DNA of 64,000 nucleotides from an uncultured Ignavibacteria bacterium (GCA_964447175.1 CAYURP010000004.1:58-64057); one strand, 5' to 3'. Positions 1 through 46,515 are shown, numbered from the stretch's first letter. Numbers and translations: made by a program. Notes: generated by a model from the sequence alone, not told the origin.

Positions 1-3000
1 AGATGTTCTAACTTTATCAGCAGAGGATATTCCCACTAATGCGAGCTTTGTGGATTCGGGTAATGGAGCGGGATTATTTACCTTTAATCCAGATTATGAC
101 CAAGCTGGGGTACATAATGTTACCTTCATTGTCTCTGATGGTTCGTTGGCGGATACTGAATTGGTTGTTATAACGGTGAATGATGTTAATCGGGCGCCGG
201 CACTGGACTTAATAGGTTCCAAGATAGTGGAAGAGGGCCAGACTTTAGAGTTTAGAGTGAGTGGCACAGATCCGGATGGGGATGCAGTGATATTAACGGC
301 TGAGGATGTTCCCACTAATGCCAGCTTTGTGGATTCGGGCAACGGAGCGGGATCGTTTACTTTTGATCCGGATTACACCCAGTCCGGTTTATACAATGTG
401 ACCTTCATAGTCTCAGATGGGTTGCTTGCGGATTCGGAGTTAGTCTCCATCACGGTGAATGAGGTGGGTAATCATGCGCCGGTACTGGATTCGATTAGAG
501 CCAAATCAGTGGACGAGGGTCAGACCTTAGAATTCAGAGTGAGTACTTCAGATCCGGATGGGGATGCTCTGAGTTTAACAGCTGAAGATGTTCCTTCTAA
601 TGCTTCCTTTGTGGATTCAGGCAATGGAGCGGGGTCCTTTACCTTTAATCCAGATTATGATCAAGCTGGAGTACATAATGTTACCTTCATTGTCTCTGAT
701 GGTTCATTGGCAGATTCAGAGTTAGTGCAGATAACAGTCAATGATATAAATCAAGCACCAGCACTGGACTTGATAGGCTCTAAGATAGTGCAGGAGGGAC
801 AAACCTTAGAGTTCAGGATTAGTGCTTCAGATCCAGATGGTGATGCGATCGTATTATCAGCTGATAGTATTCCTGCAAATGCCAGTTTTGTGGATTCGGG
901 TAATGGAGCAGGATCATTTAGCTTTAATCCGGATTACACCCAATCTGGTTTATACAATGTGATCTTCGTAGCTTCTGATGGTTCGTTAGCTGACTCGGAG
1001 TTAGTATCCGTCACGGTGAATGATGCGGGCAATCAGGCACCGGTACTGGATTCTATTAGAGCTAAGTCAGTAGACGAGGGACAGACCTTAGAATTCAGGG
1101 TGAGCGCTACAGATCCAGATGGAGATGCCCTAATCTTAACAGCTGAAGATGTTCCTACTAATGCGAGCTTTGTGGATTCGGGCAATGGAGCGGGATCATT
1201 TACCTTTAATCCAGATTATGACCAGGCTGGAGTACATAATGTTACCTTTATTACTTCAGATGGTTCTTTGGCGGATACTGAATTGGTAGACATAACGGTG
1301 AATGATGTTAATCGGGCACCGGCCCTGGACTTAATAGGTTCCCAGATAGTGGAGGAGGGCCAGACCTTAGAGTTTAGAGTGAGTGGCACAGATCCGGATG
1401 GGGATGCAGTGATATTAACGGCTGAGGATGTTCCCACTAATGCCAGCTTTGTGGATTCGGGCAACGGAGCGGGATCGTTTACTTTTGATCCGGATTATAC
1501 CCAGTCAGGATTATATAATGTGACCTTCATAGCCTCAGATGGATTGCTTGCGGATTCGGAGTTGGTCTCCATCACGGTGAACGAAGCGGGTAATCAGGTA
1601 CCAGTATTGGATTCCATTGGAGCTAAGTCAGGAGAGGAGGGTCAGACCTTAGAGTTTGGGGTACATGCTACGGATCCAGATGGAGATGCCCTGACTTTAT
1701 CGGCTGAGGATGTTCCCACCAACGCTACTTTTGTGGATTCGGGCAATGGAGCGGGATCATTTACCTTCGATCCGGATTATACTCAGGCGGGATTACACTT
1801 TGTGACCTTTATAGTTTCAGATGGTTCATTGGCTGATTCAGAGTTGGTGGAAATATCGGTATCCGAAGCTGGGAATCAAGCGCCGGTAATTGACTCAATA
1901 GGTCCTCGAATTATTAATGAGGGAAATACCTTAATTATCCTTGTGACAGCCACTGATCCGGACAATGACAGTTTGCTCCTTTCGGTGAGCAATCAACCGT
2001 CTAATTCCAGCTTCATAGACAGTGGAAACGGAATTGGATTATTCACCTTTACTCCAGATTACTATCAATCTGGAGTGGATACCGTATCTTTCCTGGCAAT
2101 GGAGAAAAAGGAAAATCCATTGTCTGATTTTGAGAATGTAATCATAACTATAATTGATATAAATCAACCGCCAGTTTTTGATTCCATTGGACCTCAGAAT
2201 GTAGCAGTTTATCAGACCTTGAGAATTAGGGTGGTAGGAACAGATCTCACAGACCCGGATGGCGGGGCATTGCACTTAACCGCAGCCCACCTGCCCCTTA
2301 ACTCAACCTTTACAGACAGCGGAGGGGGAGTTGGCGGATTTGTCTTTGCTCCTGATACCTCTCAGATGGGGAGTGATACTGTAATATTCTATTGCTCGGA
2401 TGAAGGGTCACCCCCTGCTACTGGTTCGGAAACGGTGATTATTACTGTACAACAGGGGGCTAATCAGGCGCCTGTGCTGCAATACATTGGTTCTAAACAG
2501 GTTACAGAAGGCCAGACTTTGAGTTTTAAAGTCTCAGCATCAGATCCCAATGGAACTATACCCATTCTATACACTGGCAGTTTGCCCAGGAATGCTGCAT
2601 TTGTCGACAGCGGTAATGGTAGAGGTCTGTTTACCTTTTCACCTGACTACTCCCAACAGGGTTTGAAGGAGGTTACTTTCTATGCCAGTGACGGGCAGCT
2701 TGTGGATTACGAAAAAGTGTTGATTCAGGTCAAGGACGCTGGTAATCAACGCCCCACTTTGGATTCGATTGGAGCCAAATCTGTGACTGAGGGAGATACC
2801 TTAACATTCAGCGTTCATGCTACAGATCCAGATAGTACCAAACCCGGATTGTTTGCAGAGAATTTACCGATCAATGCCAGTTTTGTAGATAATGGTAATG
2901 GAAACGGGATCTTTACCTTTACTCCGGTATATGTACAATCCGGAACATACAATATCCTCTTCTTCGCCTATGATGGAGAATTGGCTGACTCTGAGGTGGT

Positions 3001-4438
3001 ACAAATCACAGTGAATGACGCTGGAAATCAGACTCCGGTTATGACTCCCATCGATTCTCAGGTGGTAGTGGAGGGACAACAATTGGTGATTTACGTTGAA
3101 GCCATTGATCCTGATAGCACCATTCCTTTTCTCAGAGCCTGGAACGTCCCGAGTAATGCTACTTTCACCGATATTGGCGATGGAAACGGAACGTTTGTCT
3201 TCAATCCCACCTATTTCCAGGCAGGGGTGGATACTGTTATATTCGAGGCTGTGGATTACGAGGATTCACTGGTGAAGGTTAGCCAGAGTGTTCAGATTAC
3301 CGTACAAAATGTAAACCGGCGACCTGTTTTCCAGCAGGTATCCACCCAGCAGTTGAATGAAGGAGACACGTTGATCTTCAATGTAATTGCTACCGATCCG
3401 GATAGCACTTTTCCCACACTTTTCTGTACACCCAAACCTCAGAATTCCACATTCTACGATTCTGGTAACGGGGTGGGAACATTTAGTTTCTATCCGGCCT
3501 ATTTTCAATCCGGAACCTTTTACCCCATGTTTTTTGCGATTGATAATGAATTACCAGCTGAGCCGGAAACAGCATACATGCAGGTTCAGATTATCGTTTA
3601 TGATGTTCCTCAGCCTCCAGCATGGGCTGATATCCCTGACACTTCCGTAACTGAGGGAGACACTTTAATTCTGCAGGTGAGCGCATCCGATCCGGATGGA
3701 GTTCCGCCGACTCTTTCAACTGTCGGATTACCCTCCAATTCCACCTTTACGGATCATAAGAATGGAACAGGTACATTTACTTTTACTCCCAACTTTGTGC
3801 AGGCTGGAACCTCCTGGGTTAGCTTCATTGCCACTGATCTTACCTCTATGGCTGATACTGAACAGGTGCAGATTGTAATAACAGAAGCTGGTAATCGATC
3901 TCCCATCTTAGCTTTGCTTCAGACAGAATGGGTTATTCCTGCCATATACGGTGACTCTTTCACCGTTTCTGCTGCGGATCCGGATTCGACCATTCCGGTT
4001 TTAAGTGCGGTCCAGCTTCCCCATAACGCAGGTTTTTACGACAGTGGCACTGGTGCGGGATTATTTACCTTTATCCCCGATACCACACAAGCGGATTCGG
4101 TATATGAGATCATATTCATCGCCTCAGATGGACTTTTAGCTGATTCTCATGCTGTGATCTGCTCTGTAATCGCCTATACCAGAGGGGATGCCAATGGGGA
4201 CGGGAATGTAAGCATAGCTGATGCAGTTTATCTGGTAAATTACCTTTTCAACGATGGCCCCACTCCTGTTCCCTGGGGTGCTGGAGATGCTAACGGGGAT
4301 GGTAATGTAAGTATAGTGGATGTGGTTTATCTGGTTAATTATCTTTTCAATGATGGTCCACCACCGCCAAAAATCGAGTGGATAGGCATTGGTTCAGACG
4401 AAAAGGGTAAATCAAACTTGGATAATCTAAAAAATTAA
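1..4438 (+). CDS. Giant secreted surface protein (adhesin), 5'-partial. It has at least 15 tandem ~95-aa cadherin-like/He_PIG Ig-like repeats and a C-terminal tandem type-I dockerin module.
   Basis: The reading frame is open from base 2, and translation of bases 2-49 continues the repeat sequence (DVLTLSAEDIPTNASFVDSG). The repeat unit is 'DPDGDA..LTAEDVP.NASFVDSGNGAGSFTF.PDY.Q.G..NVTF..SDG.LADSELV.ITVN..N.AP'. The C-terminus reads 'GDANGDGNVSIADAVYLVNYLFNDGP...GDANGDGNVSIVDVVYLVNYLFNDGPPPP', which matches the dockerin calcium-binding loop-helix pattern D-x-N-x-D-G-x-V-S-I-x-D-x-V-x-L-x-x-Y-L. Confidence 0.8.
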   Translation, partial: DVLTLSAEDIPTNASFVDSGNGAGLFTFNPDYDQAGVHNVTFIVSDGSLADTELVVITVNDVNRAPALDLIGSKIVEEGQTLEFRVSGTDPDGDAVILTAEDVPTNASFVDSGNGAGSFTFDPDYTQSGLYNVTFIVSDGLLADSELVSITVNEVGNHAPVLDSIRAKSVDEGQTLEFRVSTSDPDGDALSLTAEDVPSNASFVDSGNGAGSFTFNPDYDQAGVHNVTFIVSDGSLADSELVQITVNDINQAPALDLIGSKIVQEGQTLEFRISASDPDGDAIVLSADSIPANASFVDSGNGAGSFSFNPDYTQSGLYNVIFVASDGSLADSELVSVTVNDAGNQAPVLDSIRAKSVDEGQTLEFRVSATDPDGDALILTAEDVPTNASFVDSGNGAGSFTFNPDYDQAGVHNVTFITSDGSLADTELVDITVNDVNRAPALDLIGSQIVEEGQTLEFRVSGTDPDGDAVILTAEDVPTNASFVDSGNGAGSFTFDPDYTQSGLYNVTFIASDGLLADSELVSITVNEAGNQVPVLDSIGAKSGEEGQTLEFGVHATDPDGDALTLSAEDVPTNATFVDSGNGAGSFTFDPDYTQAGLHFVTFIVSDGSLADSELVEISVSEAGNQAPVIDSIGPRIINEGNTLIILVTATDPDNDSLLLSVSNQPSNSSFIDSGNGIGLFTFTPDYYQSGVDTVSFLAMEKKENPLSDFENVIITIIDINQPPVFDSIGPQNVAVYQTLRIRVVGTDLTDPDGGALHLTAAHLPLNSTFTDSGGGVGGFVFAPDTSQMGSDTVIFYCSDEGSPPATGSETVIITVQQGANQAPVLQYIGSKQVTEGQTLSFKVSASDPNGTIPILYTGSLPRNAAFVDSGNGRGLFTFSPDYSQQGLKEVTFYASDGQLVDYEKVLIQVKDAGNQRPTLDSIGAKSVTEGDTLTFSVHATDPDSTKPGLFAENLPINASFVDNGNGNGIFTFTPVYVQSGTYNILFFAYDGELADSEVVQITVNDAGNQTPVMTPIDSQVVVEGQQLVIYVEAIDPDSTIPFLRAWNVPSNATFTDIGDGNGTFVFNPTYFQAGVDTVIFEAVDYEDSLVKVSQSVQITVQNVNRRPVFQQVSTQQLNEGDTLIFNVIATDPDSTFPTLFCTPKPQNSTFYDSGNGVGTFSFYPAYFQSGTFYPMFFAIDNELPAEPETAYMQVQIIVYDVPQPPAWADIPDTSVTEGDTLILQVSASDPDGVPPTLSTVGLPSNSTFTDHKNGTGTFTFTPNFVQAGTSWVSFIATDLTSMADTEQVQIVITEAGNRSPILALLQTEWVIPAIYGDSFTVSAADPDSTIPVLSAVQLPHNAGFYDSGTGAGLFTFIPDTTQADSVYEIIFIASDGLLADSHAVICSVIAYTRGDANGDGNVSIADAVYLVNYLFNDGPTPVPWGAGDANGDGNVSIVDVVYLVNYLFNDGPPPPKIEWIGIGSDEKGKSNLDNLKN

Positions 4439-7900: not shown

Positions 7901-8155
7901 GAGTATGAGATCGACAAAATGAATGATATCGTGGATATGGTCATGTGCGGAAACGCTAACAGAGACCAGGCAGTTACTATCGCGGATGTGGTTTATATCG
8001 TTAGCTTCCTGTTTAAGAGTGGAGCCGAACCCTGGGTCTATGCAGCTGATGTTAATGCAAGTGGTGATGTAACCATAGCTGATTGTGTGTATCTGGTCAG
8101 CTACTTATTCAAGAGTGGACCACCACCACAATGTTCCAAGGACTGGAAACCATAG
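4922..8155 (+). CDS. Large secreted BNR/Asp-box repeat protein (sialidase-like beta-propeller fold) with an Ig-like region and a C-terminal tandem dockerin module.
   Basis: The N-terminal signal peptide is MAKRLMLFLAVLLVVLFTAGMVWSA. Asp-box-like motifs are 'STDAGMTW' and 'STNGGDNW'. The C-terminus 'NANRDQAVTIADVVYIVSFLFKSG...DVNASGDVTIADCVYLVSYLFKSGPPP' is dockerin-like. A good RBS, aggaaaggagcaagagATG, precedes the start. Confidence 0.75.
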   Translation: MAKRLMLFLAVLLVVLFTAGMVWSAKQNPDLLKPDRPIRGDESSFDYLITKASTVFPNAFCEETTILSPYDTCIGCTWYDYQHNSRIPRMCANDYQTIAAGGHGHHYSFMYQDAWGDAGKRYINVTYYDADYGWETIPAPVITAQGYRAGYCGMNIFLDGRSVPYYHTTGVVAPNPNDLGTVISIEPNLPGKLEFKNNKYWYDIPDSVNTEFIGMWPAADVDFDDQIHIVMNEGDTAAGISWMGYVRCTEGPDSGQITCQSPGLPIYIINKETPYWNPINRCMAFDSAGVIGANLTCSRVSNKVAICYAALAETEDDSTLYQVSNDAFYLESTNGGDNWFSDPDSMQFRRNCSQYKVTDKMRCYGEVTAVYDFNDDLHVYWYTHYYDKVANEVDINDIALWHFSENTVRFCDGESVYANKITAANWEEATAGAWNRLIAKITSGVGILEGDNENYLYITWTQFDTAKWNDAGNQTQGDLYTTVSTDAGMTWMIPVNITNSTVDSCVAGQCASDHWGSMAERVDDYLHLQWIYDLDVGGAVQDEGEPTNNPVLVYDFPKSSIPLENKARIGWTPSDFIIPYVHCPKNGQTTTTLTVENIGTATLSSISLSESATWLSIGTCPSSIVAGGCPAKVTLTITGQGAEEFYVDSIHVTSNDQAGNNDFYVRLHVVMSDVYVTEEDTTIDNPTMYVGFANVGNLGDQTDTTGYYLHQDDNEPYFLYDGTVLLAFTDSNIPADSLVGRWIFDEHYLLPERDAIVTDNAQLKTKIVDAEFSPTTPQAPLPWHHRWWYWTIRTKDYMFYSQSATENLEQYVTLRYIKLYYNPPPPWWPDITPPTSIPVTYVGMGLDIDAPSDSGAWNYPGIDESRRMAFLRGYGGTNENYRMAIAQRDTCYWTIGPVGPVYCCWPDPGIITKDIPFAMHVLRNDSTVYPHGGYYDPELYKWMSMPGDSILPDSSGDTPPEDYNIITTGRIIPAGTFPPVDTYEVAYALVVADEYEIDKMNDIVDMVMCGNANRDQAVTIADVVYIVSFLFKSGAEPWVYAADVNASGDVTIADCVYLVSYLFKSGPPPQCSKDWKP

Positions 8156-8543: not shown

Positions 8544-9446
8544 ATGAATAAAAGAATTTTATTGTTGTCTTTTTCTTTAATCCTCGGTTTTTTGATGTTC
8601 GGTTTTTCTTCTGTTTATGCACAGGCACAACCATCTGAGGATGATACCATTGAGGTTGAAAAGATTACAGATATGCCCTCTGGAACATCGGTAGCAGTTA
8701 ATGTCTGGCTCAAAACAGATAGGAATTTGGGCGGTCTGACGATCCCCTTGAAATTCAGAAGTGCAGAGGGCGATACTGCCTTGGATGTGGAGTGTGATTC
8801 CATCCACTGGTCTGATTGGTTTTGGGATAATGTATCCTCTATCTATACCGGACAAGATACTACATCCTATATCGACAGCACGAATAAGACAATTTTAGTC
8901 TATGCACTTTGGTTTGGAATACCACCTTCAGCTGAATATCTGCCGGCAAACGATTCAGTAATCTTTACCATTTATTTCACTACTGGAACATATTGGGACC
9001 CAGGTGTGCCAGCTAAAATTGACACCTTCAGTATTGAATATCCCAAAAAACTTCTCACTATAGTCGATGAATCGACATTAGAAGACTTTATACCTATTTA
9101 TAAACCTGGCTCTTTAGGCGAGTTTAGCTGGGTTAGGGAAATTGGTGAGGAAGAAGCTAACGTTCCTGAGAAGTTTGTTCTGAACCAGAACTATCCCAAC
9201 CCCTTTAACCCCACCACCATAATCAGGTTCGCTCTTCCTGAGAATAGCTGGGTTAAAGTTGAAGTGTTTAACATTTTAGGACAGAAGATAACTACCTTGG
9301 TGGACGAGCATCTAACTGCCGGTTATAAGGAAACTGGGTGGGATGGTACAGATTCCAAGGGAACGAATGTGGCATCAGGAATATACTTCTACAAGATCAA
9401 AGCCAATAACTTCACGGACATCAAGAAAATGGTGCTATTGAAGTAA
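8544..9446 (+). CDS. Secreted protein of unknown function with a C-terminal T9SS sorting domain (Por_Secre_tail, type A).
   Basis: It has a signal peptide (MNKRILLLSFSLILGFLMFGFSSVYAQA). The C-terminus reads 'LNQNYPNPFNPTTIIRFALPENSWVKVEVFNILGQKITTLVDEHLTAGYKETGWDGTDSKGTNVASGIYFYKIKANNFTDIKKMVLLK', the canonical T9SS CTD signature. Confidence 0.8.
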   Translation: MNKRILLLSFSLILGFLMFGFSSVYAQAQPSEDDTIEVEKITDMPSGTSVAVNVWLKTDRNLGGLTIPLKFRSAEGDTALDVECDSIHWSDWFWDNVSSIYTGQDTTSYIDSTNKTILVYALWFGIPPSAEYLPANDSVIFTIYFTTGTYWDPGVPAKIDTFSIEYPKKLLTIVDESTLEDFIPIYKPGSLGEFSWVREIGEEEANVPEKFVLNQNYPNPFNPTTIIRFALPENSWVKVEVFNILGQKITTLVDEHLTAGYKETGWDGTDSKGTNVASGIYFYKIKANNFTDIKKMVLLK

Positions 9447-9635: not shown

Positions 9636-11795
9636 CTATGAAAGTGAATCTATACTCTGAGTGATTTTAGTACTCCAGGTTTGATCCGGTTTTAATCTCA
9701 TTTTCCAATTTGGAAATAATACCGAGGATTGGAAGTTTTTCTCAAAACCCGATTCTGACAGGGAAACTGTCAGGATGGGGAAATGCCACAGAAAAGCGGA
9801 CCTATCTGTTTTTAAATTTATATCTATTCTCAGTTTCTGATCTTTTATCCCGAATTCAAAGACACCCTGACTCTGAAATTTATCTAATAGCTTTTTTTCC
9901 TGATGATTTGTTCCGTTAATAAAATAAATCATTTTCCCATCTAATCCAGATGATGGAGTGAAATTGAACTCCACTCCAAACCACAGATCAACTGCTTCTT
10001 TAAAATTGTTCTTTATCAAATAGCTTATATCCCACAGGGAGCTATCGGCTTTGAGTATAATGGTTTTGGTTAAAGTCAGGGGAATTCTTCTATCTTTAAT
10101 CCAGATCCAGCCATCCCGGCTCAGCGTAAGCTTAAGTTTTTTCCCTTCCTTTTCGATCCTGGGTTGATAGGGCTGGTTGACAAAATCTCCCTGCTCGGGA
10201 TATTTACATCGAGAGAAACCATCAATTTGAGTACTATCCCCTAAGAAATGATCGATCAGAGAACCTCTTCTATACCAGTCATAGGTCAGATACTTCTCCA
10301 ATCCTTGCTCCTTGGTTAACACCAGGTCATGTATGCTGGCCACTTCTGTTTTGTTTTGGTTCTTTGATTTTTTTAAATCCGATATCTTTTTATGATATCC
10401 CTCCTCCCATCTGGAAAGGGAATTAATCAAATTGAAGGATTCAGGGACAAAATCCAACTCGTATAGAGCTCCTCCATATGAAGGCGAAAAATAAAGATTT
10501 AACCAGGCAGTGCTGATTAAAATATCGTCCTTTCCATCCTTATCCAGATCGAACAGCCGATAATCCACCCAATTTTCACTTTTGTGAGTTAACTGATTAT
10601 AGATTTTATCCCCGTGTATCAGGTGATTATACACTGCCTCCCTGAGGTGATAGAGGTATAACCCTCCGAAAACTCCATGCCAGTAAGGGCAGTTGCACTG
10701 GGATTTCCAGAGTTCATCCTGGGCTTGTTTAAGCTTTCCTTTTTCATGTTTTGCATTTGAGGAGCTTAACGAATGTATCCTTTCTGAAAGGTCTAACATC
10801 CTTTTATGGAGGTGATTTACCTCCGGGTATTTGGTTAAAAAGTTTCTCCAGAATCCACCTCTTACGAAAACGCCATACTTATCAAAAAGCTTTGAATCTT
10901 TAAGAAAATTCTCCAAGTTCTCATATTCTCTGAATCCCTGAGCCGGGAGAGACCACTGGGACATCTCGGCATAGGAGGAGGTGGGCAGATAAATTCTTCC
11001 TAAAGGGGGTAGTTTTTCCAATGCTTCGCTGAAATGAAGCATATTTATCCAATCGCTGTTTTTATCTATGGCTTTAAAAAATTTTAACATCCACTCATCC
11101 TCATAACAGTGTTTGTATGTACCGGGCCAGATGCCAAATTTTTCCCCGTCGTCAGCATAAACAATTAGAGGGTTATCTTCCTCCTGGGTGATTTTCTTAA
11201 AATATTGTAGTGTTTCCTCAGGTTCTTTAAAAGGTATAGTATATCTTAGGACTTGGCTGATAGGGAAGAGGTTGGTCACATAACCTTGTTCTTCTGTAAC
11301 ATAATATCCCAAAAGCTCTTTCTCGGATAATCCGGAGTATTTGAAATGGGTGTCATCCAGGATTACAAATTTAATCCCGGACTCAGAGATTATTTTAGGA
11401 AGATGGGGTTCCCAAACCCTTTCTGCCAGCCACATTCCCAAAGGGGTGGTTTTAAACTCCCCTTTTATGAATTGGGTTAGTTTTTGGATTTGACCCTTTT
11501 TGTCCCAATCCGGTATAACCGGAAGAATGGGCTCATAAAATCCACCGGTTAAAATTTCTACCTGCCTATTTTTAACCATCTGGGCGATCTCATCCATGGT
11601 TTCCGGATGATTGTTTTTTAGCCATTCCAAAAGGATACCGGAGTAATGTAAGGAGATTTTAAAGTTGGGATATTCTTTGAGCAGCTTCAAAAAGGGCCAA
11701 TAACAGCGCTGGTAAGCGTCCTGGAAGATGTGCTGGAAGTTTCCTATGGGCTGATGATTGTGAACCCCAAAGCAAAAGTTTATCTTTTGAGCCAT
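9636..11795 (-). CDS. Glycoside hydrolase family 57 enzyme (4-alpha-glucanotransferase/alpha-amylase-like).
   Basis: The N-terminus 'KINFCFGVHNHQPIGNFQHIFQDAYQRCYWPFL...HYSGILLEWL' matches the conserved GH57 N-terminal region, for example Thermococcus 4-alpha-glucanotransferase 'INFIFGIHNHQPLGNF...HFSGPLLEWI'. Confidence 0.85.
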   Translation of the reverse strand: MAQKINFCFGVHNHQPIGNFQHIFQDAYQRCYWPFLKLLKEYPNFKISLHYSGILLEWLKNNHPETMDEIAQMVKNRQVEILTGGFYEPILPVIPDWDKKGQIQKLTQFIKGEFKTTPLGMWLAERVWEPHLPKIISESGIKFVILDDTHFKYSGLSEKELLGYYVTEEQGYVTNLFPISQVLRYTIPFKEPEETLQYFKKITQEEDNPLIVYADDGEKFGIWPGTYKHCYEDEWMLKFFKAIDKNSDWINMLHFSEALEKLPPLGRIYLPTSSYAEMSQWSLPAQGFREYENLENFLKDSKLFDKYGVFVRGGFWRNFLTKYPEVNHLHKRMLDLSERIHSLSSSNAKHEKGKLKQAQDELWKSQCNCPYWHGVFGGLYLYHLREAVYNHLIHGDKIYNQLTHKSENWVDYRLFDLDKDGKDDILISTAWLNLYFSPSYGGALYELDFVPESFNLINSLSRWEEGYHKKISDLKKSKNQNKTEVASIHDLVLTKEQGLEKYLTYDWYRRGSLIDHFLGDSTQIDGFSRCKYPEQGDFVNQPYQPRIEKEGKKLKLTLSRDGWIWIKDRRIPLTLTKTIILKADSSLWDISYLIKNNFKEAVDLWFGVEFNFTPSSGLDGKMIYFINGTNHQEKKLLDKFQSQGVFEFGIKDQKLRIDINLKTDRSAFLWHFPILTVSLSESGFEKNFQSSVLFPNWKMRLKPDQTWSTKITQSIDSLS

Positions 11796-11809
11796 AAAAG
11801 GTTTTAACT

Positions 11810-12706
11810 TCAGAAAAGCTCGAACTTGAAGTATCTTTTAGGATTCTTCTTGATATCCTCAATTAGCTCATCGATGGATCTGGTAGTTTTCTTAAGATCC
11901 TGATATAAGCTTTTATCATTTATCATTTGACCCAATGTCCCTTCACCTTTTTCGATTTTTTCAGATAGCGTTTTTAAAGAAGCTGATAGCTCCTCTAAAG
12001 TTGAGGTGATTTTCACCAGGTCGTTTGAGGCGTGGCTGAACTTATCCAGGGTAGTATCCAGTTTGGGCTTACTTTGATCCACCATTATCTTCAATTCGGA
12101 GGATGCGTATGAAAGGTCATTTATCGACTGATCTATTTTGGGTTTGTTCTCCTTAAGCAGAGAAGCTAAATCCGAGGATAATTGGCTAACGTTTTTTATG
12201 GTCTCTTTTATCTTTTGCTCAGACCATTCGGTTCCCAGAGCGCCCTTTAGGTAACCGGTTAAGGTTCTGATCTCAGCGATCATCTGGCCCATCATCCCCA
12301 TTACTTCAGGAATGCCGGTATCATAAAAGCCTCTGGGTAATTGGGAGAGGTCTAAGGGTTTATCGCTGTGCCCGGGCTGAATGGCGATGAATCTTTCTCC
12401 CATCAAACCGATGTTCATCACTTTAAATTCTACATCCTCCATTAACTCTACGTCCGTGGTGAGATTAAATTTCACCAACACATCACCCTGGTAAAGTTTT
12501 ATTTGCTCAACCTCTCCCTTTTTCACCCCCAGAACCGTTACCGGATCTCCGATTTCTAAGGCTCCCACGTTGGGAAAAAGGACGTTTAAAGCATATCTTT
12601 CCTGCCTGAACCTGTATTCCTTAACCCATATGATTCCCCATACCAGAATGACAACAGCCAACGCTACGGCGATCCCCACCCTCAATTCAACTGATTGATC
12701 TCTCAT
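11810..12706 (-). CDS. MCE/MlaD-family protein (periplasmic lipid-trafficking component).
   Basis: It has an N-terminal TM helix and an MCE-domain-like region (YALNVLFPNVGALEIGDPVTVLGVKKGEVEQI). The C-terminal half is coiled-coil-rich. Confidence 0.65.
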   Translation of the reverse strand: MRDQSVELRVGIAVALAVVILVWGIIWVKEYRFRQERYALNVLFPNVGALEIGDPVTVLGVKKGEVEQIKLYQGDVLVKFNLTTDVELMEDVEFKVMNIGLMGERFIAIQPGHSDKPLDLSQLPRGFYDTGIPEVMGMMGQMIAEIRTLTGYLKGALGTEWSEQKIKETIKNVSQLSSDLASLLKENKPKIDQSINDLSYASSELKIMVDQSKPKLDTTLDKFSHASNDLVKITSTLEELSASLKTLSEKIEKGEGTLGQMINDKSLYQDLKKTTRSIDELIEDIKKNPKRYFKFELF

Positions 12707-12728
12707 AGTATTTCTTTTCTCCGGTATT

Positions 12729-13691
12729 TCACTCTATATCGCTTTCCAGATAATCTCTAACCTTCATCTTCCGGTTAATTTCCTCGGTGAGCCTTTTGGA
12801 GAATTTTTCAGCTGGATGCTGACCGTAAATCTTGAGCATATGGTTCATGGCTATTACCTCAGAGATGACGGTGATATTCTTTCCAGGGGAGATGGGAATG
12901 GTAACCACAGGTAACTCCACTCCCAGGATTTTAGTGAACTTGTCTTCAATGCCCAGCCTTTCATATTCCAATTCCTCTTCCCACCAGACCAATCTGACCT
13001 CTACCTCAATTCTCTTTTGAATCCTGATGGCTCTAATTCCAAAGAGTTTTTCCAAATCTATAATACCCACGCCTCTTATCTCCATGTGATGACCCAGAAA
13101 CTCGTATCCGGTTCCCACGATTACATCCGGGGTTTTTCTGATCACCTTGATGATGTCGTCTGCAACCAGCCGGTGTCCTCTTTCCACCAGATCCAGAGCG
13201 CATTCGGATTTACCTATGCCTGATTTCCCGGTGTAAAAAAGACCCACACCATAAACATCCACCAGAGTACCATGTAAAGTAACTGAAGGGGCAAAGATGT
13301 TATCCAGATAAAGAGATAAACGATTAGTCAACTCTGCTGTGGAGAGGCGGGTTTGAAAAACTGAAGTGTGGTGGCTCTCCGCTATCTGAATCAGCTCCCG
13401 GGGAGGAATCAAACCTTTGGTTACAATCAGGCAGGGTATCTCAAAGTTAAATAAATTTTCTAAAAGTTTTATCCTTTTCTCCTGGTTCAAACTCTTGAGA
13501 TATGCCAGCTCGGTTTCTCCCAGAACCTGGGGTCTGTTATGAGCGAATCTGTCAGTAAAGCCAGCCAGCGCCAGACCCGGACGGTGAATCTGATTATGGA
13601 TTATCTTTTTTTTAAGTCCATCCCCGGAGGTTAATAAAGTTAGCTCAAAGAACTCCTTCCTGTCCTTATATAGCTTCTCCACAGTTATCAT
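12729..13691 (-). CDS. hprK: HPr kinase/phosphorylase.
   Basis: It carries the Walker A motif 'GKSGIGKSECALDLVERGHRLVADD'. It lies downstream of rpoN-hpf, as in canonical clusters. Confidence 0.9.
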   Translation of the reverse strand: MITVEKLYKDRKEFFELTLLTSGDGLKKKIIHNQIHRPGLALAGFTDRFAHNRPQVLGETELAYLKSLNQEKRIKLLENLFNFEIPCLIVTKGLIPPRELIQIAESHHTSVFQTRLSTAELTNRLSLYLDNIFAPSVTLHGTLVDVYGVGLFYTGKSGIGKSECALDLVERGHRLVADDIIKVIRKTPDVIVGTGYEFLGHHMEIRGVGIIDLEKLFGIRAIRIQKRIEVEVRLVWWEEELEYERLGIEDKFTKILGVELPVVTIPISPGKNITVISEVIAMNHMLKIYGQHPAEKFSKRLTEEINRKMKVRDYLESDIE

Positions 13692-13709
13692 CTTAGGTGT
13701 TCCATATAA

Positions 13710-14075
13710 TTATAATATTTGTTCCTCCTGCTCCGATTCTGAACCTTTGTTTTCCGATTGTGTTTTTATGGCTTGTCCTTCTTTGGGCTTTTTGTCCTGC
13801 AATTTAGCTTTGTATTTTTTTAATTGAGTTTCCATCTTGCCTACCACCTTCTCAATTGAATCGTGAAGATCATAAGATCGGTATTTACTGCTTAGAGTTG
13901 TGCCGTATACTTTGGTTTTGAGTTCTGCTGTAATTCTGTTTTTCTCCTGATCCAGAATCAGGTGGCAATCTATGATATGATTAAAAAATTTTCCCAGTCT
14001 TTTGATCTCCTTTTGGGAGAAATCTTTAAGATCATCATTCAGATCGAAATGTCGCGCGGTGGTCCTGATCTGCAT
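13710..14075 (-). CDS. hpf: Ribosome hibernation promoting factor / sigma-54 modulation protein.
   Basis: 'MQIRTTARHFDLNDDLKDFSQKEIKRLGKFFNHIIDCHLIL' matches the HPF/RaiA family. It is positioned after rpoN. Confidence 0.85.
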   Translation of the reverse strand: MQIRTTARHFDLNDDLKDFSQKEIKRLGKFFNHIIDCHLILDQEKNRITAELKTKVYGTTLSSKYRSYDLHDSIEKVVGKMETQLKKYKAKLQDKKPKEGQAIKTQSENKGSESEQEEQIL

Positions 14076-14159
14076 AAGATACTCCTTTCTTTTGTTTGGT
14101 CAATCATTTTGACCTGCGATTGCAGCCTGAATGAAAAAGTAAAAAGTGTAACTTCGGGA

Positions 14160-15029
14160 TCAATACTTCCTTACGCATACCGGGGCTGCTCCGTTATTGA
14201 AAAGGTAGTTTATCAGGTAAACTACGTCGGCGATGCTTACCCCCCTGGCCTGGTTCACATCACCTGAGAGCTCCGGACACAATTGGGGTCCGTTATTGAA
14301 CAACCAGTTTATCATATAGACTGCGTCCACTATGCTGGTTTTGCCATCCGCATTCACATCCCCGCATTTACACTGCAGCAGATTGCCACACCAGGTTTGA
14401 TTTAAATACAGGGTTCCGAAGTTGAATTGAGTTTCCACCAGGTGCCCCTCAGTATCCGAAACGAAGCCATTCACTACTATATGAGCGCTCCGATCCTGGG
14501 TGGTGTCGGGCATACACAAAACGTCCAGATACAGTTTAAAAAGAACGCCTGACCCCGGGGGTATGGGACTTCCTTCATGTGCCATTCCTGCTACCTTGAC
14601 CCAGTCACAATCCAGAAAAGCGGTATCTCCCAACTCTCCGTGAGTCTGTATCCATTCGAAATTCTGAACTAAAGTTCCTGCTGTCTGGATCCGGCAGAAA
14701 CGAACAGCTGATGTATCCCAGGGAACGCTACTGGAGTCGATTTGAACATTGATCTTTTGTGTGGTGAAATCGTTTTCCGCTGGACGTCCCAGGGTGAACA
14801 TCAGTTCGATTCCTCTAATGGGAACATCATTTTGAAGCAAGATCGTAACTGGTTGATAAGTTTTTCCGCTGGCCAGAGAGGTATCTCCCACAGTCACATA
14901 GGCTTGCATCTGGGGGAAGGCAAGGTCAGCCCCTTTTGTTAAAAAGAAAAGCCAGAAAAAAATAAAAACTGAAACGATTTGTCTTTTTCTCATCAGGTTG
15001 CTCCTTTTTCGGAATTTTCTCATTAGCAT
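14160..15029 (-). CDS. Secreted protein of unknown function with a C-terminal tandem dockerin module.
   Basis: It has a signal peptide. The C-terminus reads 'GDVNADGKTSIVDAVYMINWLFNNGP...GDVNQARGVSIADVVYLINYLFNNGAAP'. It sits between rpoN and hpf. Confidence 0.7.
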   Translation of the reverse strand: MLMRKFRKRSNLMRKRQIVSVFIFFWLFFLTKGADLAFPQMQAYVTVGDTSLASGKTYQPVTILLQNDVPIRGIELMFTLGRPAENDFTTQKINVQIDSSSVPWDTSAVRFCRIQTAGTLVQNFEWIQTHGELGDTAFLDCDWVKVAGMAHEGSPIPPGSGVLFKLYLDVLCMPDTTQDRSAHIVVNGFVSDTEGHLVETQFNFGTLYLNQTWCGNLLQCKCGDVNADGKTSIVDAVYMINWLFNNGPQLCPELSGDVNQARGVSIADVVYLINYLFNNGAAPVCVRKY

Positions 15030-15148
15030 TCTTTCCCCTAACTCCAGTACGTAAGGGAAACTCTTTCGTTATTAATTATTCGAACGCTTTCACCAATGGT
15101 TTGGTTCTAATTGGGAAATAATAACTAAACCTGAAAAGGAAACACATC

Positions 15149-16600
15149 TCACTCCACATCAGATAGAGAGGGTGGTAATATTGCCTCTTCAGAACTCTCC
15201 TCTTTGCTGGTAAGAAATTTCTTTCTAAACCTGGCCGGGAGTATTTTAAGTTCCTCTCTATATTTGGTAACTGTTCTTCGGGCGATATTTATCCCTTCTT
15301 TCTTTAACCTCAGATAAATTTCCTGATCCGAAAGGGGAGCGGTGGGGTTTTCTTTTCTTACTATCTCCTCGATAATCCTTTTGACATTTCTTCTAGACAG
15401 TTCCTCGCCGTCCTCTTTTTTCAATCCGGAGGTGAAAAAGTACTTAATCTCAAATACTCCCTGAGGGGTTTGCACATATTTATCATTAGCCACTCTGGAG
15501 ATGGTAGCTACATTCATTCCCACCCTTTCGGCAATGGTCTCCATGATCAGAGGTTTTATATGTTCAATTCCATGTTCAAAGAATTCTTTTTGTTCCTCCA
15601 CAATGGCTTCCATTACCTTTATCATGGTGCTTCTTCTCTGATTCAGAGCATTGAGAAACCATCGAGCCTGCTCCAGTTTCTGCCTTATATAATTTTTAGT
15701 TTCGGGTGAGGAACCGGAACTTTTTTTGATCATCTGCTTGTAGGTGGGATTGATTCTCAAGCGTGGGACGTTTTTGTCGTTATGAAAAACTACGTATTCA
15801 TTGCCAATTTTTTCCACCATCAGGTCCGGCACGACGGGGGAGGCGCCCTTGGTGAATCTTCCTGAGGCTGGTCTGGGAGAGAGATTTTTTATTATCTCCA
15901 TCGCCTTTTGAACTTCCTCGAAGCTGACCTTGAGCAATTTGGATAGTTGAAAAGGGCTTTTTTTATCCAGCTGGGATAGATGCTGGTTTATTATCTGATA
16001 GGCTAAGCTTTCTTTTAAGTCTTTCTGTTCCAGCTGAATGAGTAGTGATTCCTTTAAATTCCTGGCTCCCACGCCCGGGGGATCAAACGTTTGGATCAGC
16101 TTGAGTATACTTTTGATCTTTTCCGGATCGAATTTTAAGGCAGATATTATCTCCTCAATGGAGCAACTGAGATAACCATTCTCATCTATATTGCCGATGA
16201 TATACTCTCCGATTTCGATTTCCTCCCGAGTCAGTTTATTGAATTTGAGCTGCTCTAAAAGGTGGTCATACAGGCTTTTTTCCACTACCGGAACGGGTTC
16301 AAAATGTTCCACTCCCCTCTCTTTCTGGTATTTTGCCTTATAATCCGTATCATCGCCTAAATAATCCTCCCAGTCGATCTTGGATAGTTCTGGATCTTCC
16401 TTGGGTTCCTCCTTCACCTGCTCCAATTCCGGTTCCTCGGTTTCCTGAAGGGAATCCACTTCCTCCAGAAGGGGATTTGTGGAAAGTTCCTGGCGCAGGG
16501 TCTGCTCCAACTTCAAAATAGGCATCTGAAGCATACGCAGGGATTGAATGAGCTGTGGTGCAAGCACCTGCTTCAGTCTGGTTTCTAAACCGAGTCTCAT
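15149..16600 (-). CDS. rpoN: RNA polymerase sigma-54 factor.
   Basis: The N-terminus 'LKQVLAPQLIQSLRMLQMPILKLEQTLRQELSTNPLLEE' matches region I. The C-terminal RpoN box 'ARRTVTKYRE' is present. Confidence 0.95.
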   Translation of the reverse strand: MRLGLETRLKQVLAPQLIQSLRMLQMPILKLEQTLRQELSTNPLLEEVDSLQETEEPELEQVKEEPKEDPELSKIDWEDYLGDDTDYKAKYQKERGVEHFEPVPVVEKSLYDHLLEQLKFNKLTREEIEIGEYIIGNIDENGYLSCSIEEIISALKFDPEKIKSILKLIQTFDPPGVGARNLKESLLIQLEQKDLKESLAYQIINQHLSQLDKKSPFQLSKLLKVSFEEVQKAMEIIKNLSPRPASGRFTKGASPVVPDLMVEKIGNEYVVFHNDKNVPRLRINPTYKQMIKKSSGSSPETKNYIRQKLEQARWFLNALNQRRSTMIKVMEAIVEEQKEFFEHGIEHIKPLIMETIAERVGMNVATISRVANDKYVQTPQGVFEIKYFFTSGLKKEDGEELSRRNVKRIIEEIVRKENPTAPLSDQEIYLRLKKEGINIARRTVTKYREELKILPARFRKKFLTSKEESSEEAILPPSLSDVE

Positions 16601-16640
16601 AATTCTTCTCTTTTCTTATTTCATCGGTATAATTCGTAAT

Positions 16641-17366
16641 CTAATTTAATCTGAACTTCTCACCCAGATATATCTTTTTTGCCTCCGGATCTGAAGCTAA
16701 GAACTCCGCCGATCCTGATTTCAAAATCTCACCTTCACACATAATATACGCATGATCGGTGATGGATAAAGTCTCTCTCACGTTATGATCGGTGATTAAA
16801 ACACCTAAGCCTTTGTTTTTTAACTCGTAGACTATCTTCTGGATTCCCTCCACTTTTATAGGATCGATCCCGGAAAAAGGCTCGTCCAGTAATATGAAGC
16901 GGGGCTCATTCACTAAAGCCCTGGTTATCTCCAATCTCCTCCTTTCCCCTCCGGATAGGGAATAAGCTTTTCTGTTTGCCAGGTGGGCTATATCCAGATC
17001 GTTTAAGAGCGCATTTAGTTTTTTTTCCCTTTGGCCTTTGTCTTTTTTCTGCATCTCCAAAATAGCCAGGATGTTCTGTCTTACAGTCAGCTTTCTGAAG
17101 ATCGAGGGCTCCTGGGACAGGTAGCCGATCCCATTTTGTGCTCTTTTATACATGGCCAGATGGGTAATATCCTGATCGTCGATTAACACTTTTCCCTGAT
17201 CCGGTTTGATGAATCCGATGATCATGTAAAAAGTGGTGGTTTTCCCGGCACCATTAGGACCCAAAAGCCCCACAATCTCTCCTTGTTTTACCTGAATGGA
17301 GACCTCATTTACCACCCGACGTTTTTTGTAAATCTTGACCAGATTTTCCGTTCTGAGAATTGACAT
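16641..17366 (-). CDS. lptB: LPS export ABC transporter ATP-binding protein.
   Basis: 'GLLGPNGAGKTTTFYMIIGFIKPDQG' has Walker A and the ABC signature 'LSGGERRR'. It lies immediately upstream of rpoN. Confidence 0.9.
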   Translation of the reverse strand: MSILRTENLVKIYKKRRVVNEVSIQVKQGEIVGLLGPNGAGKTTTFYMIIGFIKPDQGKVLIDDQDITHLAMYKRAQNGIGYLSQEPSIFRKLTVRQNILAILEMQKKDKGQREKKLNALLNDLDIAHLANRKAYSLSGGERRRLEITRALVNEPRFILLDEPFSGIDPIKVEGIQKIVYELKNKGLGVLITDHNVRETLSITDHAYIMCEGEILKSGSAEFLASDPEAKKIYLGEKFRLN

Positions 17367-17387
17367 CTCTAATAAAGCTGAAAGCGA

Positions 17388-17936: not shown

Positions 17937-17989
17937 ACCAATCTAATTTAATACGGGAAGCCAATAGCCCGGTATACATTTTTTTGATT

Positions 17990-36588: not shown

Positions 36589-36600
36589 AGGAATTAAAAA

Positions 36601-42301: not shown

Positions 42302-42322
42302 TAAAAAAAGAAAGGAGCAAAA

Positions 42323-43228: not shown

Positions 43229-43249
43229 TAAACTCTTTGGGAGAGGAAA

Positions 43250-43684: not shown

Positions 43685-43907
43685 TCCAAATTTATCTCTT
43701 TATAATCTAACCCTGCAATAAATGTGAATCCTGTTGCAGGGATAATGCCCGCTAATCCTTACATCACTTTTTCCCGTCTCAATACCCTTTTCCTTAATCT
43801 CCTTAAACGCAATTAATTACATCACACACCATCTTTATCCATCGGTTCCTTTATCATCCGGGACACTGGCATATCAATTGCTTTTTATCGGGGTGGAGGG
43901 AAAAGCC

Positions 43908-44393
43908 ATGAAATGCTACTTTACAGCAAAACCTGAGTCAACTGATGAGCCGGGAAAAAAGAGAGTATTGACCTCCTTTGCCATACCCGATCTGGGTGTT
44001 TTATTCAGGACCCATTATTCAGGTGAAGTGGATGAATGCAATTATATAAGCCTTTTGAAGCTTTTGAAATTCGTCGAGTCAAATCCCAAGGTCTTCGATA
44101 ATCATAAAATTCAGGTTTACTCCCACGAGCCCCAGATTGTCTATCAGGTGAACGGGAAAATCCCCTGTGGCGAGAGGCTGCAAAAGTTAAATGGCTTAGC
44201 CCTTTTGTATAAGGCAAAACTCAAGTACTCGCTGGACTGGGTACATTTAAAGGATAACAAAGCTGAGAAGGGGATTATAGACCAGCCCCAGACGAAAATC
44301 CTACTCCCCCTCAACTTTGATGAATTGGACGATTCGCTTAAAAAAAGAATGAAACCCAGATCCAATACAAAGCGCTCCCCTTTGTCCATGTAA
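43908..44393 (+). CDS. Hypothetical protein.
   Basis: The ORF has a good RBS (ggaggg-7nt-ATG at 43908). No family recognised. Confidence 0.4.
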   Translation: MKCYFTAKPESTDEPGKKRVLTSFAIPDLGVLFRTHYSGEVDECNYISLLKLLKFVESNPKVFDNHKIQVYSHEPQIVYQVNGKIPCGERLQKLNGLALLYKAKLKYSLDWVHLKDNKAEKGIIDQPQTKILLPLNFDELDDSLKKRMKPRSNTKRSPLSM

Positions 44394-44425
44394 CGTAACT
44401 TTCAGTATTTCATTAAATTATCTCC

Positions 44426-44460: not shown

Positions 44461-44529
44461 AGGACATAATAACCTTGAATCTTATTCTCTATTTGGCATA
44501 GAGGATAGAATTTTGAGCGGGGTGAGAAA

Positions 44530-46515
44530 ATGTTCAGAAAAATAGCGATTTTGGCTGCATTCCTTGCTTTTGTCGCATTTGATCTGAATGCTCGTTCTCT
44601 GATTTCAGAAGAGCCAATTAAAATGAACGGAATCCCTGAGGCTCAGCAGAGGGTGCATAGAGTGGGGAACGTTTATTTCTGCAACACCAACTGGGGTTTT
44701 TTAGGAAGCCAGATGAGAGACATATATGAGTCCATAGGTGGGTGCTTCAATCCCAACCCTGAGAAGGAAGTTCAGGCTCCTTCGTTTGAGACTCCACCGA
44801 ATTCTGGATTAGAATACCTTTTCCAGGGTGCGCTCTGGATCGGAGCTATAGTTACAACCAATACAGAAATTGAGACACTGGTAACTGTGGGTGCGGATGG
44901 CTGGTGGTGGATCTATGAGATGGCACCAGGTGAGGGGTCGGAGTATGGGATAATCGAGAAGTCCACAATCCATCCAACTTCCTGTTATTCTCCGGAGGCT
45001 CTTTCTGCACAGGATATAATAGGAATTTTCTCGGATACTGCTGATGCTCCACTTTCTCCCTGGGATCCGAGTACAGACTGGGATGGCAGACCGCATCATC
45101 CCTTAGGAGTAGAAATCACTCAAATTGGTTACTCCTGGTCATTGCCGGAGTATGGCGATTTCATAATTCTATGCTATATAGTTAAGAACATCGGAACCTA
45201 TAATTTGTCTGAAATGTACCTGGGTTTCTATATGGATACAGATATCTGTCATATCAGCGAGAATCCCTATAATCCAGATGAAGGAGCTCAAGATGACATA
45301 ACCGGCTTTTTGAAGAATTACGTTACACCATCTGGAGAAACAACTGAGGTGAATATTGCCTGGGCTGCTGATAATGATGGCCAGCCATACTCAGGAGTAT
45401 TTACTGAACTCAGTCCTACAGGTGTGATAGGGCTGAAACTGCTGGGTTGTAGCAACCCTAATGTCGGAATTTCATATAATTGGTGGATTTCAAATTATCA
45501 AGGTTATCCATGGGACTGGGGTCCCTGGCTTAAGGTAAATCAACAAAAATGGGAGGAAATCAACCCATACGGATCGGGAAACCGTTTTCCAGATAATGCC
45601 ATGGGCACACCAGGAGGTGATCGGTCCAAATATTTTATCTTGTCCAACGGAGAGATGGATTTTGATCAGATATTCACAGATACCTTGCCCAAGCTGGATA
45701 CTTCCTGGGTTCCAGCTCAAAGTTCAGTATCCCAGGATTTGGTTGATGGATATGATATTAGATTTCTTTATTCATTGGGCCCTTTTAATCTTCCTCCAGG
45801 TGATAGTATTTTCGCAGCAATAGCATTGATGGCTGGTGGAAGTTTTCATAGTGATCCTGAAAACGAGGATGTTAACCTGCCTTTGTATCCTTATACCTAC
45901 TACTCAAATCTTGATTTCTCGAACTTAATTGAAAATGCACAGATAGCCCAGCAGATTTATGATACTTTACTTGACTTCCACCCACCTGCGTCAATCAAAA
46001 ATCTTAGAGCGAGCTTAATTGAAAATGGCTCAGTTACTCTTACCTGGACCACCCCTGGTGATGACTGGGATTTCGGTATAGCTTCTTTTTATGATTTAAG
46101 ATATTCAGATTTACCTGTGGAAGAAGATACCATTTCCTGGTGGGAGCAAGCATATATAGCTACAAATTTGCCTGTCCCTTCTGAGCCAGGATCTATAGAT
46201 AGCTGCCAGGTTTCAGGCCTTTCATCAGACAGTGTTTATTATTTCATTATCAGAGCCTGTGACGATGTGGGTTATTGCTCAGATTTTTCTAATATCGCCT
46301 ATTCAGGGCTATCTGGTGATATTGACCTGAACGGTCAGGTTGATATAGACGACATCTTAATTGTAGTTCAATATACATTAAAATCTGGTTATCTTGTGCT
46401 TCCACTGGCTGCTGCGGATGTGAATGGTGACTGCTTGGTCAACATTGTTGACGTGGTTTATCTGGTTAACTATGTGTTCAAAGGAAGAGCTGCTCCTCAA
46501 ATTGGATGTGCTTAG
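44530..46515 (+). CDS. Secreted protein with an FN3-like domain and a C-terminal tandem dockerin module.
   Basis: The signal peptide is MFRKIAILAAFLAFVAFDLNARS. The FN3-like stretch is 'IKNLRASLIENGSVTLTWTTPGDDW...YYFIIRACDD'. The C-terminus reads 'GDIDLNGQVDIDDILIVVQYTL...ADVNGDCLVNIVDVVYLVNYVFKG'. Confidence 0.7.
   Translation: MFRKIAILAAFLAFVAFDLNARSLISEEPIKMNGIPEAQQRVHRVGNVYFCNTNWGFLGSQMRDIYESIGGCFNPNPEKEVQAPSFETPPNSGLEYLFQGALWIGAIVTTNTEIETLVTVGADGWWWIYEMAPGEGSEYGIIEKSTIHPTSCYSPEALSAQDIIGIFSDTADAPLSPWDPSTDWDGRPHHPLGVEITQIGYSWSLPEYGDFIILCYIVKNIGTYNLSEMYLGFYMDTDICHISENPYNPDEGAQDDITGFLKNYVTPSGETTEVNIAWAADNDGQPYSGVFTELSPTGVIGLKLLGCSNPNVGISYNWWISNYQGYPWDWGPWLKVNQQKWEEINPYGSGNRFPDNAMGTPGGDRSKYFILSNGEMDFDQIFTDTLPKLDTSWVPAQSSVSQDLVDGYDIRFLYSLGPFNLPPGDSIFAAIALMAGGSFHSDPENEDVNLPLYPYTYYSNLDFSNLIENAQIAQQIYDTLLDFHPPASIKNLRASLIENGSVTLTWTTPGDDWDFGIASFYDLRYSDLPVEEDTISWWEQAYIATNLPVPSEPGSIDSCQVSGLSSDSVYYFIIRACDDVGYCSDFSNIAYSGLSGDIDLNGQVDIDDILIVVQYTLKSGYLVLPLAAADVNGDCLVNIVDVVYLVNYVFKGRAAPQIGCA

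Follow-up and report, generated by a model that had tools for sequence, protein, structure and literature searches.

A putative non-cellulosomal cohesin–dockerin display system with a predicted type IX secretion anchor in a Candidatus Zixiibacteriota genome fragment

Cohesin–dockerin pairing is best known from the cellulosomes of Gram-positive bacteria. The closest counterpart to the locus described here is a cellulosome-like complex inferred in silico for Candidatus Stygibacter, a member of the Cloacimonadota (Williams et al. 2021; PMC8542988). We analysed a 64,000-nucleotide stretch of DNA from an uncultured bacterium (CAYURP010000004.1:58-64057; hereafter the window, by which we mean the whole stretch at its full length) that encodes four secreted proteins ending in dockerin modules (P1–P4) and a fifth (P5) ending in a type IX secretion system (T9SS) C-terminal sorting domain. 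Two of the five, P5 and P3, also begin with modules of predicted cohesin fold. With moderate confidence, we favour a reading in which these genes are the part, visible in the window, of a small cohesin–dockerin display system of a diderm Zixibacteria cell that is not a cellulosome. The likeness to Stygibacter lies in host and layout: both are uncultured diderms of the Fibrobacteres–Chlorobi–Bacteroidetes (FCB) group, both systems are deduced in silico only, both encode signal-peptide proteins with C-terminal dockerins, and in both a cohesin protein with a T9SS domain is proposed as the surface attachment (PMC8542988).

The five coding spans named in an initial annotation of the window are genuine open reading frames (ORFs) with translations as described there, after two adjustments. 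The first, P1 (2–4438, plus strand), reads in frame 2 from base 2 and its 5' end is cut by the window edge; for the minus-strand gene, P3 (14160–14993), the ATG at 14993 is the most likely start, not that at 15029; it is common to 30 of 30 homologues and preceded by AAGGAG 7 nt upstream. A motif scan of all six frames confined the dockerin-type Ca loop plus helix to P1–P4, and a hidden Markov model (HMM) built from the window's own four modules returned exactly four matches in the six frames, the next ORF having an E-value of 0.36. Each module consists of two segments of ~22 residues in which a Ca loop, D-x-N-x-D-G-x-x-x-x-x-D, is followed by a helix, giving eight segments in total. Against the Pfam model Dockerin_1 (PF00404, gathering threshold 22.9 bits), P1 scored 41.0 bits (E 2.2e-10), P3 24.6 and P4 28.6; full-length P2 was unmatched and its C-terminal 71 residues alone reached 20.4 bits (E 5.9e-4), so that three of the four modules pass the threshold and that of P2 falls marginally under it. 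Leave-one-out HMMs, built to avoid circularity, recovered all four omitted modules with 53–88 bits (E 9e-16 to 9e-27), and the next best window ORF had an E-value above 0.07. The P4 dockerin also matches a solved type I dockerin from Clostridium thermocellum, 3ul4_B (phmmer against PDB sequences, E 1.3e-5). ORFs, HMM scores and leave-one-out recovery all agree with the annotated set of four dockerin-tagged proteins and one protein with a T9SS tail.

The dockerin of P1 lies at 4184–4372 (plus strand, residues 1395–1457) and consists of two near-identical segments, DANGDGNVSI[AV]D[AV]VYLVNYLFNDGP; that of P2 is flanked by cysteines and lies at 7943–8134 (plus strand, residues 1008–1071; leave-one-out 70 bits, E 4e-21). 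The P3 dockerin, supported by its Pfam match and a homologue alignment, occupies 14175–14369 (minus strand, residues 209–273), and the P4 dockerin 46312–46500 (plus strand, residues 595–657; leave-one-out 53 bits). All four modules are tandem, as annotated, but the single consensus quoted for them does not describe the first segments of the P2 and P4 dockerins, whose first Ca loops are partly degenerate (NANRDQ and DIDLNG, respectively). Conservation in the helices is not limited to the Ca ligands: in all eight segments position 10 is I, position 17 is V or I and position 18 is N, S or Q, while position 11 is A or V in seven of them, and the dockerins of P1, P2 and P4 carry a near-identical helix pattern, [ST]-I-[AV]-D-x-V-Y-L-[VI]-N-Y-L-F. 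This conservation, as read from the sequences, fits one shared or similar partner surface. The modules are, by these sequence criteria, real dockerins, and cohesin binding is predicted for them.

Three of the dockerins, those at 14175–14369 (minus strand), 7943–8134 and 46312–46500, have a C-terminal G-P-x-P-x-C motif and flanking cysteines. In P3, the dockerin cysteines C208, C210, C239 and C273 are invariant over 31 homologues. The pattern suggests that the cysteines form disulfide clasps, which would be atypical of clostridial dockerins.

The candidate partners of these dockerins are P5 and P3. P5 (8544–9446, plus strand, 300 residues) has a visible signal peptide, a cohesin-fold module (8625–9128, residues 28–195) with the family-invariant motif C-D-S-x-x-W-x-D-W, and a T9SS type A C-terminal sorting domain (9192–9443, residues 217–300). 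The tail scores above the curated cut-offs of both models, with 34.7 bits against 27 for Por_Secre_tail (PF18962) and 41.5 against 23 for NCBIfam TIGR04183, and the match covers residues 217–297 of 300, at the extreme C-terminus. The T9SS domain first annotated on this gene is thus, at the level of sequence models, a genuine sorting domain, and P5 a putative surface-anchoring cohesin. P3 (277 residues) has an adaptor-like build of signal peptide, cohesin-fold module (14379–14909, minus strand, residues 29–205) and dockerin; in its cohesin-fold module C100, C129 and C202 are invariant and C160 nearly so.

Several lines of evidence point to a cohesin fold for these modules. Both are modeled as nine-stranded jelly-roll beta-sandwiches that superpose better on solved cohesins than on other folds, the best structural matches including the cohesins of OlpA, OlpC and ScaC, and cohesins make up 19 of the top 20 Foldseek matches of the P5 model (E 2e-6 to 6e-4). 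Sequence identity of the modules to solved cohesins is only 10–19%; searches of PDB sequences with P3, P5 and a P5-module profile (phmmer, hmmsearch) found no cohesin, and BLASTP gave no significant match between the P3 and P5 modules. We then compared profiles with HHalign, starting from homologues gathered for alignment (34 for P3 and 6 for P5). A broadened 71-module P5-type profile aligned with Pfam-recognised cohesin segments at 95.3% probability (E 2.3e-8, 125 columns). Compared with this broadened profile, the P3-type module reached 92.9% (E 3.7e-7), a link with the P5-type family that covers the first 39 columns only; the narrow P3 profile reached 5% against a 7-sequence P5 profile, so that the signal appears only with the broadened one, and the P3-type profile compared directly with Pfam-recognised cohesin segments gave 9%. 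Alignments of the full-length families matched in their tails only and were discarded as spurious. The models give the N-terminal modules of P5 and P3 a cohesin fold, and dockerin binding is predicted for both. The initial annotation had stated that no cohesin partner was in view and that the scaffoldin was unknown, a statement that these two N-termini do not support. Module HMMs found no further copy of either module in the window's six frames.

The relatives of the P5 module show its domain context. Its profile matched only 61 proteins among 1.84 billion cluster representatives (HMMER, E<=1e-3), and by this sequence measure the P5-type module is a small, distinct family. Pfam annotation of 59 of the 61 gave Por_Secre_tail in 32, Dockerin_1 in 14 and Cohesin in 6; in these 59 relatives PF00963 never matches within the P5-type module itself, the Cohesin matches falling elsewhere in the chain. 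Canonical cohesins, dockerins and T9SS tails do, however, occur in the same chains as P5-type modules. Two small forms dominate. Both begin with a signal peptide and the module; one continues with a T9SS C-terminal domain and has ~270–300 residues, as in P5, and the other continues with a dockerin (as in P0041, P0061 and P0062). Three close relatives of P5 (P0036, P0037 and P0038) have, where P5 has its T9SS tail, just one dockerin segment, with one Ca loop and one helix and ending in GPPPC[DE]; such a half-dockerin may need dimerisation to function. Larger relatives combine more modules: P0058 has a P5-type module at residues 30–179, two Pfam cohesins (best-matched stretch 1152–1248) and a T9SS tail, and a member of its cluster is annotated 'cohesin domain-containing protein [candidate division Zixibacteria]'; P0083 (2056 residues) has ten BACON domains and a T9SS tail; and P0046 and P0052 each carry two dockerins and a Pfam cohesin. 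Beside P0058, in locus L009, lies a 272-residue protein with a Pfam Cohesin match and a weak FlgD_ig match; because FlgD_ig co-hits T9SS C-terminal domains in this data set, the protein probably has the architecture of P5 with a canonical cohesin, its tail being deduced from that co-occurrence. By analogy, the architectures of the P5-type family mirror those of anchoring and adaptor scaffoldins. Public automatic labels on the relatives include 'dockerin type I repeat-containing', 'T9SS type A sorting domain-containing' and 'cohesin domain-containing'.

The arrangement of the genes is conserved as well. The order P1, P2, P5, a GH57 gene, mlaD, hprK, hpf, P3, rpoN is kept in three loci from other contigs (L001, L006 and, in part, L002), and in L006 the P5 homologue is just 33–37% identical and the gene order is still kept. 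Local HMM scans show the succession of dockerin gene, dockerin gene and cohesin-fold/T9SS gene in L001, L005 and L006; in each of these the next gene upstream of the P5 orthologue is a P2 orthologue with a dockerin. In L003 and L007 the gene upstream of the P5 homologue also ends in a dockerin, which makes this true of all loci with upstream sequence. P3 sits between rpoN (15149–16600) and hpf (13710–14075), a position conserved in L001, L002 and L006.

The proteins that would be displayed are diverse. P1 consists of ~13 tandem-95/Big_9/cadherin-like repeats followed by the dockerin, with Pfam matches to Big_9 (296 bits), Cadherin_5, He_PIG and Dockerin_1 and an NCBIfam tandem-95 repeat match of 274.7 bits in 13 stretches, which makes it a putative adhesin-like cargo. 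Its repeats are still recognisable in the DNA as a tandem array at 14–1860 (282-bp period, 6.6 copies, 74% matches), which argues for fairly recent expansion or ongoing homogenisation. P2 (4922–8155, plus strand, 1077 residues) has a Sec-type signal peptide and, apart from the dockerin tail, no Pfam or NCBIfam family; its two halves searched separately gave no usable Pfam match at E<=10. It contains two Asp-box-like motifs, one canonical (STDAGMTW, residue 484) and one degenerate (STNGGDNW, residue 332). The BNR/Asp-box propeller that had been proposed for it, and with it a sialidase-like fold, is rejected, the Pfam BNR match scoring 11.4 bits (E 0.36) where the cut-off is 27. P4 (44530–46515, plus strand, 661 residues), ~30 kb from the other four proteins, has a signal peptide, a ~480-residue domain without assigned function, an fn3-like domain and the dockerin, and its N-terminal region had no usable Pfam match at E<=10. 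On sequence, then, the visible cargo would comprise one adhesin-like repeat protein and two proteins without assigned function. Pfam and NCBIfam scans found no glycoside hydrolase (GH), polysaccharide lyase, carbohydrate esterase or carbohydrate-binding module (CBM) family in any of the five proteins, in line with the initial annotation, which saw no obvious cellulolytic catalytic domain in the dockerin proteins apart from the propeller. Classification as a cellulosome was therefore rejected, with no GH or CBM in the system and a neighbouring GH57 protein without a dockerin.

We propose that these parts work together as follows. All five proteins would be exported to the periplasm by Sec; signal peptides are seen in P2–P5, and the N-terminus of P1 lies outside the window. 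P5 would then cross the outer membrane through the T9SS, have its C-terminal domain removed and leave its cohesin fixed to the surface, by analogy with T9SS cargo of Bacteroidota. The dockerins of P1, P2 and P4 would dock on cohesin modules, so that an adhesin-like protein and two further proteins are displayed on the surface, and P3, with both a cohesin-fold module and a dockerin, would be the adaptor through which the assembly is extended or branched. Binding of the window's dockerins by the P5 and P3 modules is a prediction, and surface anchoring of P5 is expected by analogy with Bacteroidota. A cohesin–dockerin display system working alongside T9SS in a non-cellulosomal lineage had been suggested before; the display system and the lineage stand, but 'alongside' does not, as P5 is a likely anchor of the same system.

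Several observations weigh against this proposal. The N-terminal modules of P3 and P5 (~170–180 residues), although cohesin-like on visual inspection, match no Pfam family, Cohesin PF00963 included, even at E<=10, and the AlphaFold2 models are of moderate confidence (mean predicted local distance difference test score 59 for P3, with core strands at 70–88, and 63.6 for P5, with the module at 65–87). The cohesin assignment of P3 is mainly fold-based, because its profile link to the P5-type family spans 39 columns. None of the T9SS machinery genes (SprA, PorK/L/M/N, PorU, PorV) is among the genes of the 64-kb window, and the dockerin proteins show no evident outer-membrane route. Finally, canonical PF00963 cohesins occur in Zixibacteria and could be the true dockerin partners. 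This last point leads to the alternative that survives best, in which the dockerins do function but bind canonical PF00963 cohesins of large scaffoldins whose genes lie outside the window, and the P5 and P3 modules are beta-sandwiches of cohesin shape that serve, for example, as stalks, in adhesion or in carbohydrate binding. Zixibacteria proteins with a Pfam Cohesin and a T9SS tail exist (P0058, P0083, P0088 and the 272-residue neighbour in L009), Pfam Cohesin does not recognise the P5 and P3 modules, and fold alone is no proof of dockerin binding. P5-type modules, however, share chains with dockerins and with canonical cohesins, take the position and the tails of canonical single-cohesin proteins, and have profile homology to Pfam cohesins, and dockerin genes adjoin P5 in all loci examined. 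We consider this alternative unlikely as a replacement for the proposed system, and the two can both hold, canonical scaffoldins elsewhere being compatible with dockerin binding by P5 and P3.

The relatives of P4 bear on a second alternative. The P4 cargo domain has more than 530 relatives, mostly with Zixibacteria names. Among the best 120 of these, a dockerin forms the C-terminus of 57, a canonical T9SS C-terminal domain that of 25 and a divergent, tail-like end that of ~31, the rest being fragments. The ~31 proteins of the third group (~880 residues, for example P0117, P0121 and P0204) end in '...VSGIYLFSVE...GKFVIIK'. Precomputed Pfam lists give no family for most of the ~880-residue relatives; in sequence, this end resembles a T9SS C-terminal domain that has diverged, and it may represent a sorting-domain subtype without a model of its own. 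In locus L008, which is syntenic to the P4 region and in which the same reductase and murJ genes follow, there are four tandem P4 paralogues (10001–18408), of which the first and fourth have a T9SS tail, the second a dockerin and the third a tail-like end, an array that, on sequence comparison, indicates local duplication with tail exchange. Exchange of dockerin and T9SS tails fits indirect and direct routes to one place.

The same exchange could also be taken to mean that the dockerin tails work independently of cohesins, as Ca-binding stabilisers, as a sorting or retention tag of another envelope pathway, or by binding something on the surface that is not a protein. Dockerin and T9SS domains do interchange on the same domain in two families, as sorting signals might, and some relatives (P0036–P0038) have a single dockerin segment. 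Peer et al. are said to have found, in 2009, many genomes with dockerins and without known cohesins. Yet helix residues outside the Ca ligands are conserved over four otherwise unrelated proteins, which points to a shared protein interface, and cohesin-fold modules are encoded beside dockerins and fused to them. Tail exchange, moreover, is equally expected for direct versus indirect anchoring. We regard cohesin-independent tails as quite improbable.

In the proposed display system, dockerin proteins without a T9SS tail would presumably also cross the outer membrane. One conceivable route is that the dockerin cargo, while in the periplasm, where Ca is present, binds the P5 or P3 cohesin and is carried as a folded complex through the T9SS translocon by means of the cohesin protein's C-terminal domain, in a kind of hitch-hiking in which the cohesin–dockerin pair may act as a secretion adaptor and not as a surface tether alone. 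This would explain both the exchange of dockerin and T9SS tails on the same cargo domain and the retention of a small cohesin/T9SS gene directly downstream of dockerin genes; we consider it a long shot.

The least probable alternative is that the clustering is functionally meaningless, tails of both kinds being common enough in secreted Zixibacteria proteins for five to fall within 64 kb by chance, as might be argued from the size of the P4 family with such tails, the distance of P4, the place of P3 in a housekeeping operon and promoter- and terminator-like sites between P1, P2 and P5 that are no commoner than in shuffled sequence, but the order P1–P2–P5 and the rpoN–P3–hpf position are kept where P5 is only 33–37% identical, and two small proteins carry exactly the module type known to bind dockerins.

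The rest of the window describes the host. Close homologues of the window proteins are named Candidatus Zixiibacteriota or candidate division Zixibacteria, and the contigs syntenic with the window come from metagenome-assembled genomes of Zixiibacteriota; by these homologue names and syntenic contigs, the host lineage is Candidatus Zixiibacteriota, a non-cellulosomal diderm. An outer membrane of lipopolysaccharide (LPS), and with it a diderm cell, is indicated by genes in the window for LptB and LptC, for a lipid A acyltransferase and for enzymes of the 3-deoxy-D-manno-oct-2-ulosonic acid (KDO) pathway. The remaining genes belong to the core chromosome. They comprise the lptC-lptB-rpoN-hpf-hprK operon and genes for KDO and lipid A, CTP synthase, GH57, signal peptidase, sugar-nucleotide enzymes and Wzi, together with topA, xerC, hslVU, pyrB, a geranylgeranyl reductase gene, murJ, mscL, comEC, MglA/Roadblock-like genes and pilB-pilT-pilC. 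P3 interrupts this otherwise classical operon in the window (13710–16600, minus strand) and in L001 (7336–10225) and L006 (13644–16575), so that a gene for a putative surface-display adaptor is kept within a sigma-54/ribosome-hibernation operon in at least three divergent Zixibacteria contigs. The GH57 gene (alpha-amylase/4-alpha-glucanotransferase; 9636–11795, minus strand) lies directly downstream of P5 in conserved synteny; Pfam domains span residues 9–711 of its 719-residue product, which has no dockerin, and because this coverage leaves no space for a signal peptide the enzyme is probably cytoplasmic.

Four ORFs of 171–395 residues had no Pfam match (E<=1e-3 or 1e-4), at 25667–26854 (minus strand), 43878–44393, 50006–50608 and 56823–57734; the second of them lies just upstream of P4. 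At 54318–63750, a DUF4388 protein, a protein with tetratricopeptide repeats and a Roadblock/LC7 domain, a Ras/Arf-like small GTPase and a second Roadblock protein form an MglA/MglB-like polarity module directly upstream of pilB-, pilT- and pilC-like genes (T2SSE, T2SSE, T2SSF). This cluster is probably a control unit of type IV pilus motility, and it could be relevant to the secretion of dockerin cargo.

The locus suggests that a deep-branching, uncultured diderm phylum applies plug-and-socket logic to other cargo, with the socket placed on a T9SS anchor and drawn from a family of cohesins to which standard domain models are blind. Where genome surveys find 'dockerins without cohesins', the cohesins may for this reason have been counted too low. 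The anchor and adaptor modules, compact and minimal by nature (277–300 residues), are possible parts for orthogonal display, and the locus poses the concrete question of how dockerin cargo crosses the outer membrane. A literature search found no publication combining Zixibacteria with dockerin, and a looser search that also included cohesin, T9SS and cellulosome gave top-ranked results in which Zixibacteria are unmentioned.

Set beside Stygibacter, the system proposed here differs in phylum, in scale and in cargo. The Stygibacter scaffoldin is one protein of 3,755 residues with tandem Pfam-recognised cohesins and CBM2/CBM3, whereas here the carriers are single-module proteins of 277–300 residues that Pfam misses, with no CBM; its cargo consists of enzymes (GH18, GH57, S8 and C25), against an adhesin-like protein and two without assigned function here; and its GH57 carries a dockerin where that of the window does not (PMC8542988). 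A cohesin–dockerin adaptor is, in addition, present in the window. The same logic of anchor, adaptor and tandem-dockerin cargo is found in the scaffoldins of clostridial systems (OlpA/OlpC and SdbA of C. thermocellum; ScaB/ScaC of Acetivibrio cellulolyticus). These, however, are attached to a Gram-positive wall by S-layer homology domains or sortase, whereas here a T9SS domain is predicted to lead to the outer membrane. Unlike clostridial cellulosomes, moreover, the window system has no glycoside hydrolases or CBMs, and its dockerins end in G-P-x-P-x-C with flanking cysteines. Cohesins outside cellulosomes have been described from Archaeoglobus fulgidus (2xdh) and from the toxin complex of Clostridium perfringens (2vo8, 2w1n, 2jh2), in archaeal or monoderm hosts and without T9SS anchoring. 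Finally, direct T9SS display in Bacteroidota, in which cargo is held on anionic LPS, has its likeness in the type A domain of P5 and in many P4 paralogues, all above curated thresholds. The difference is that in the system proposed here a subset of the cargo has a dockerin replacing the C-terminal domain, which would imply a second, indirect and non-covalent layer of display.

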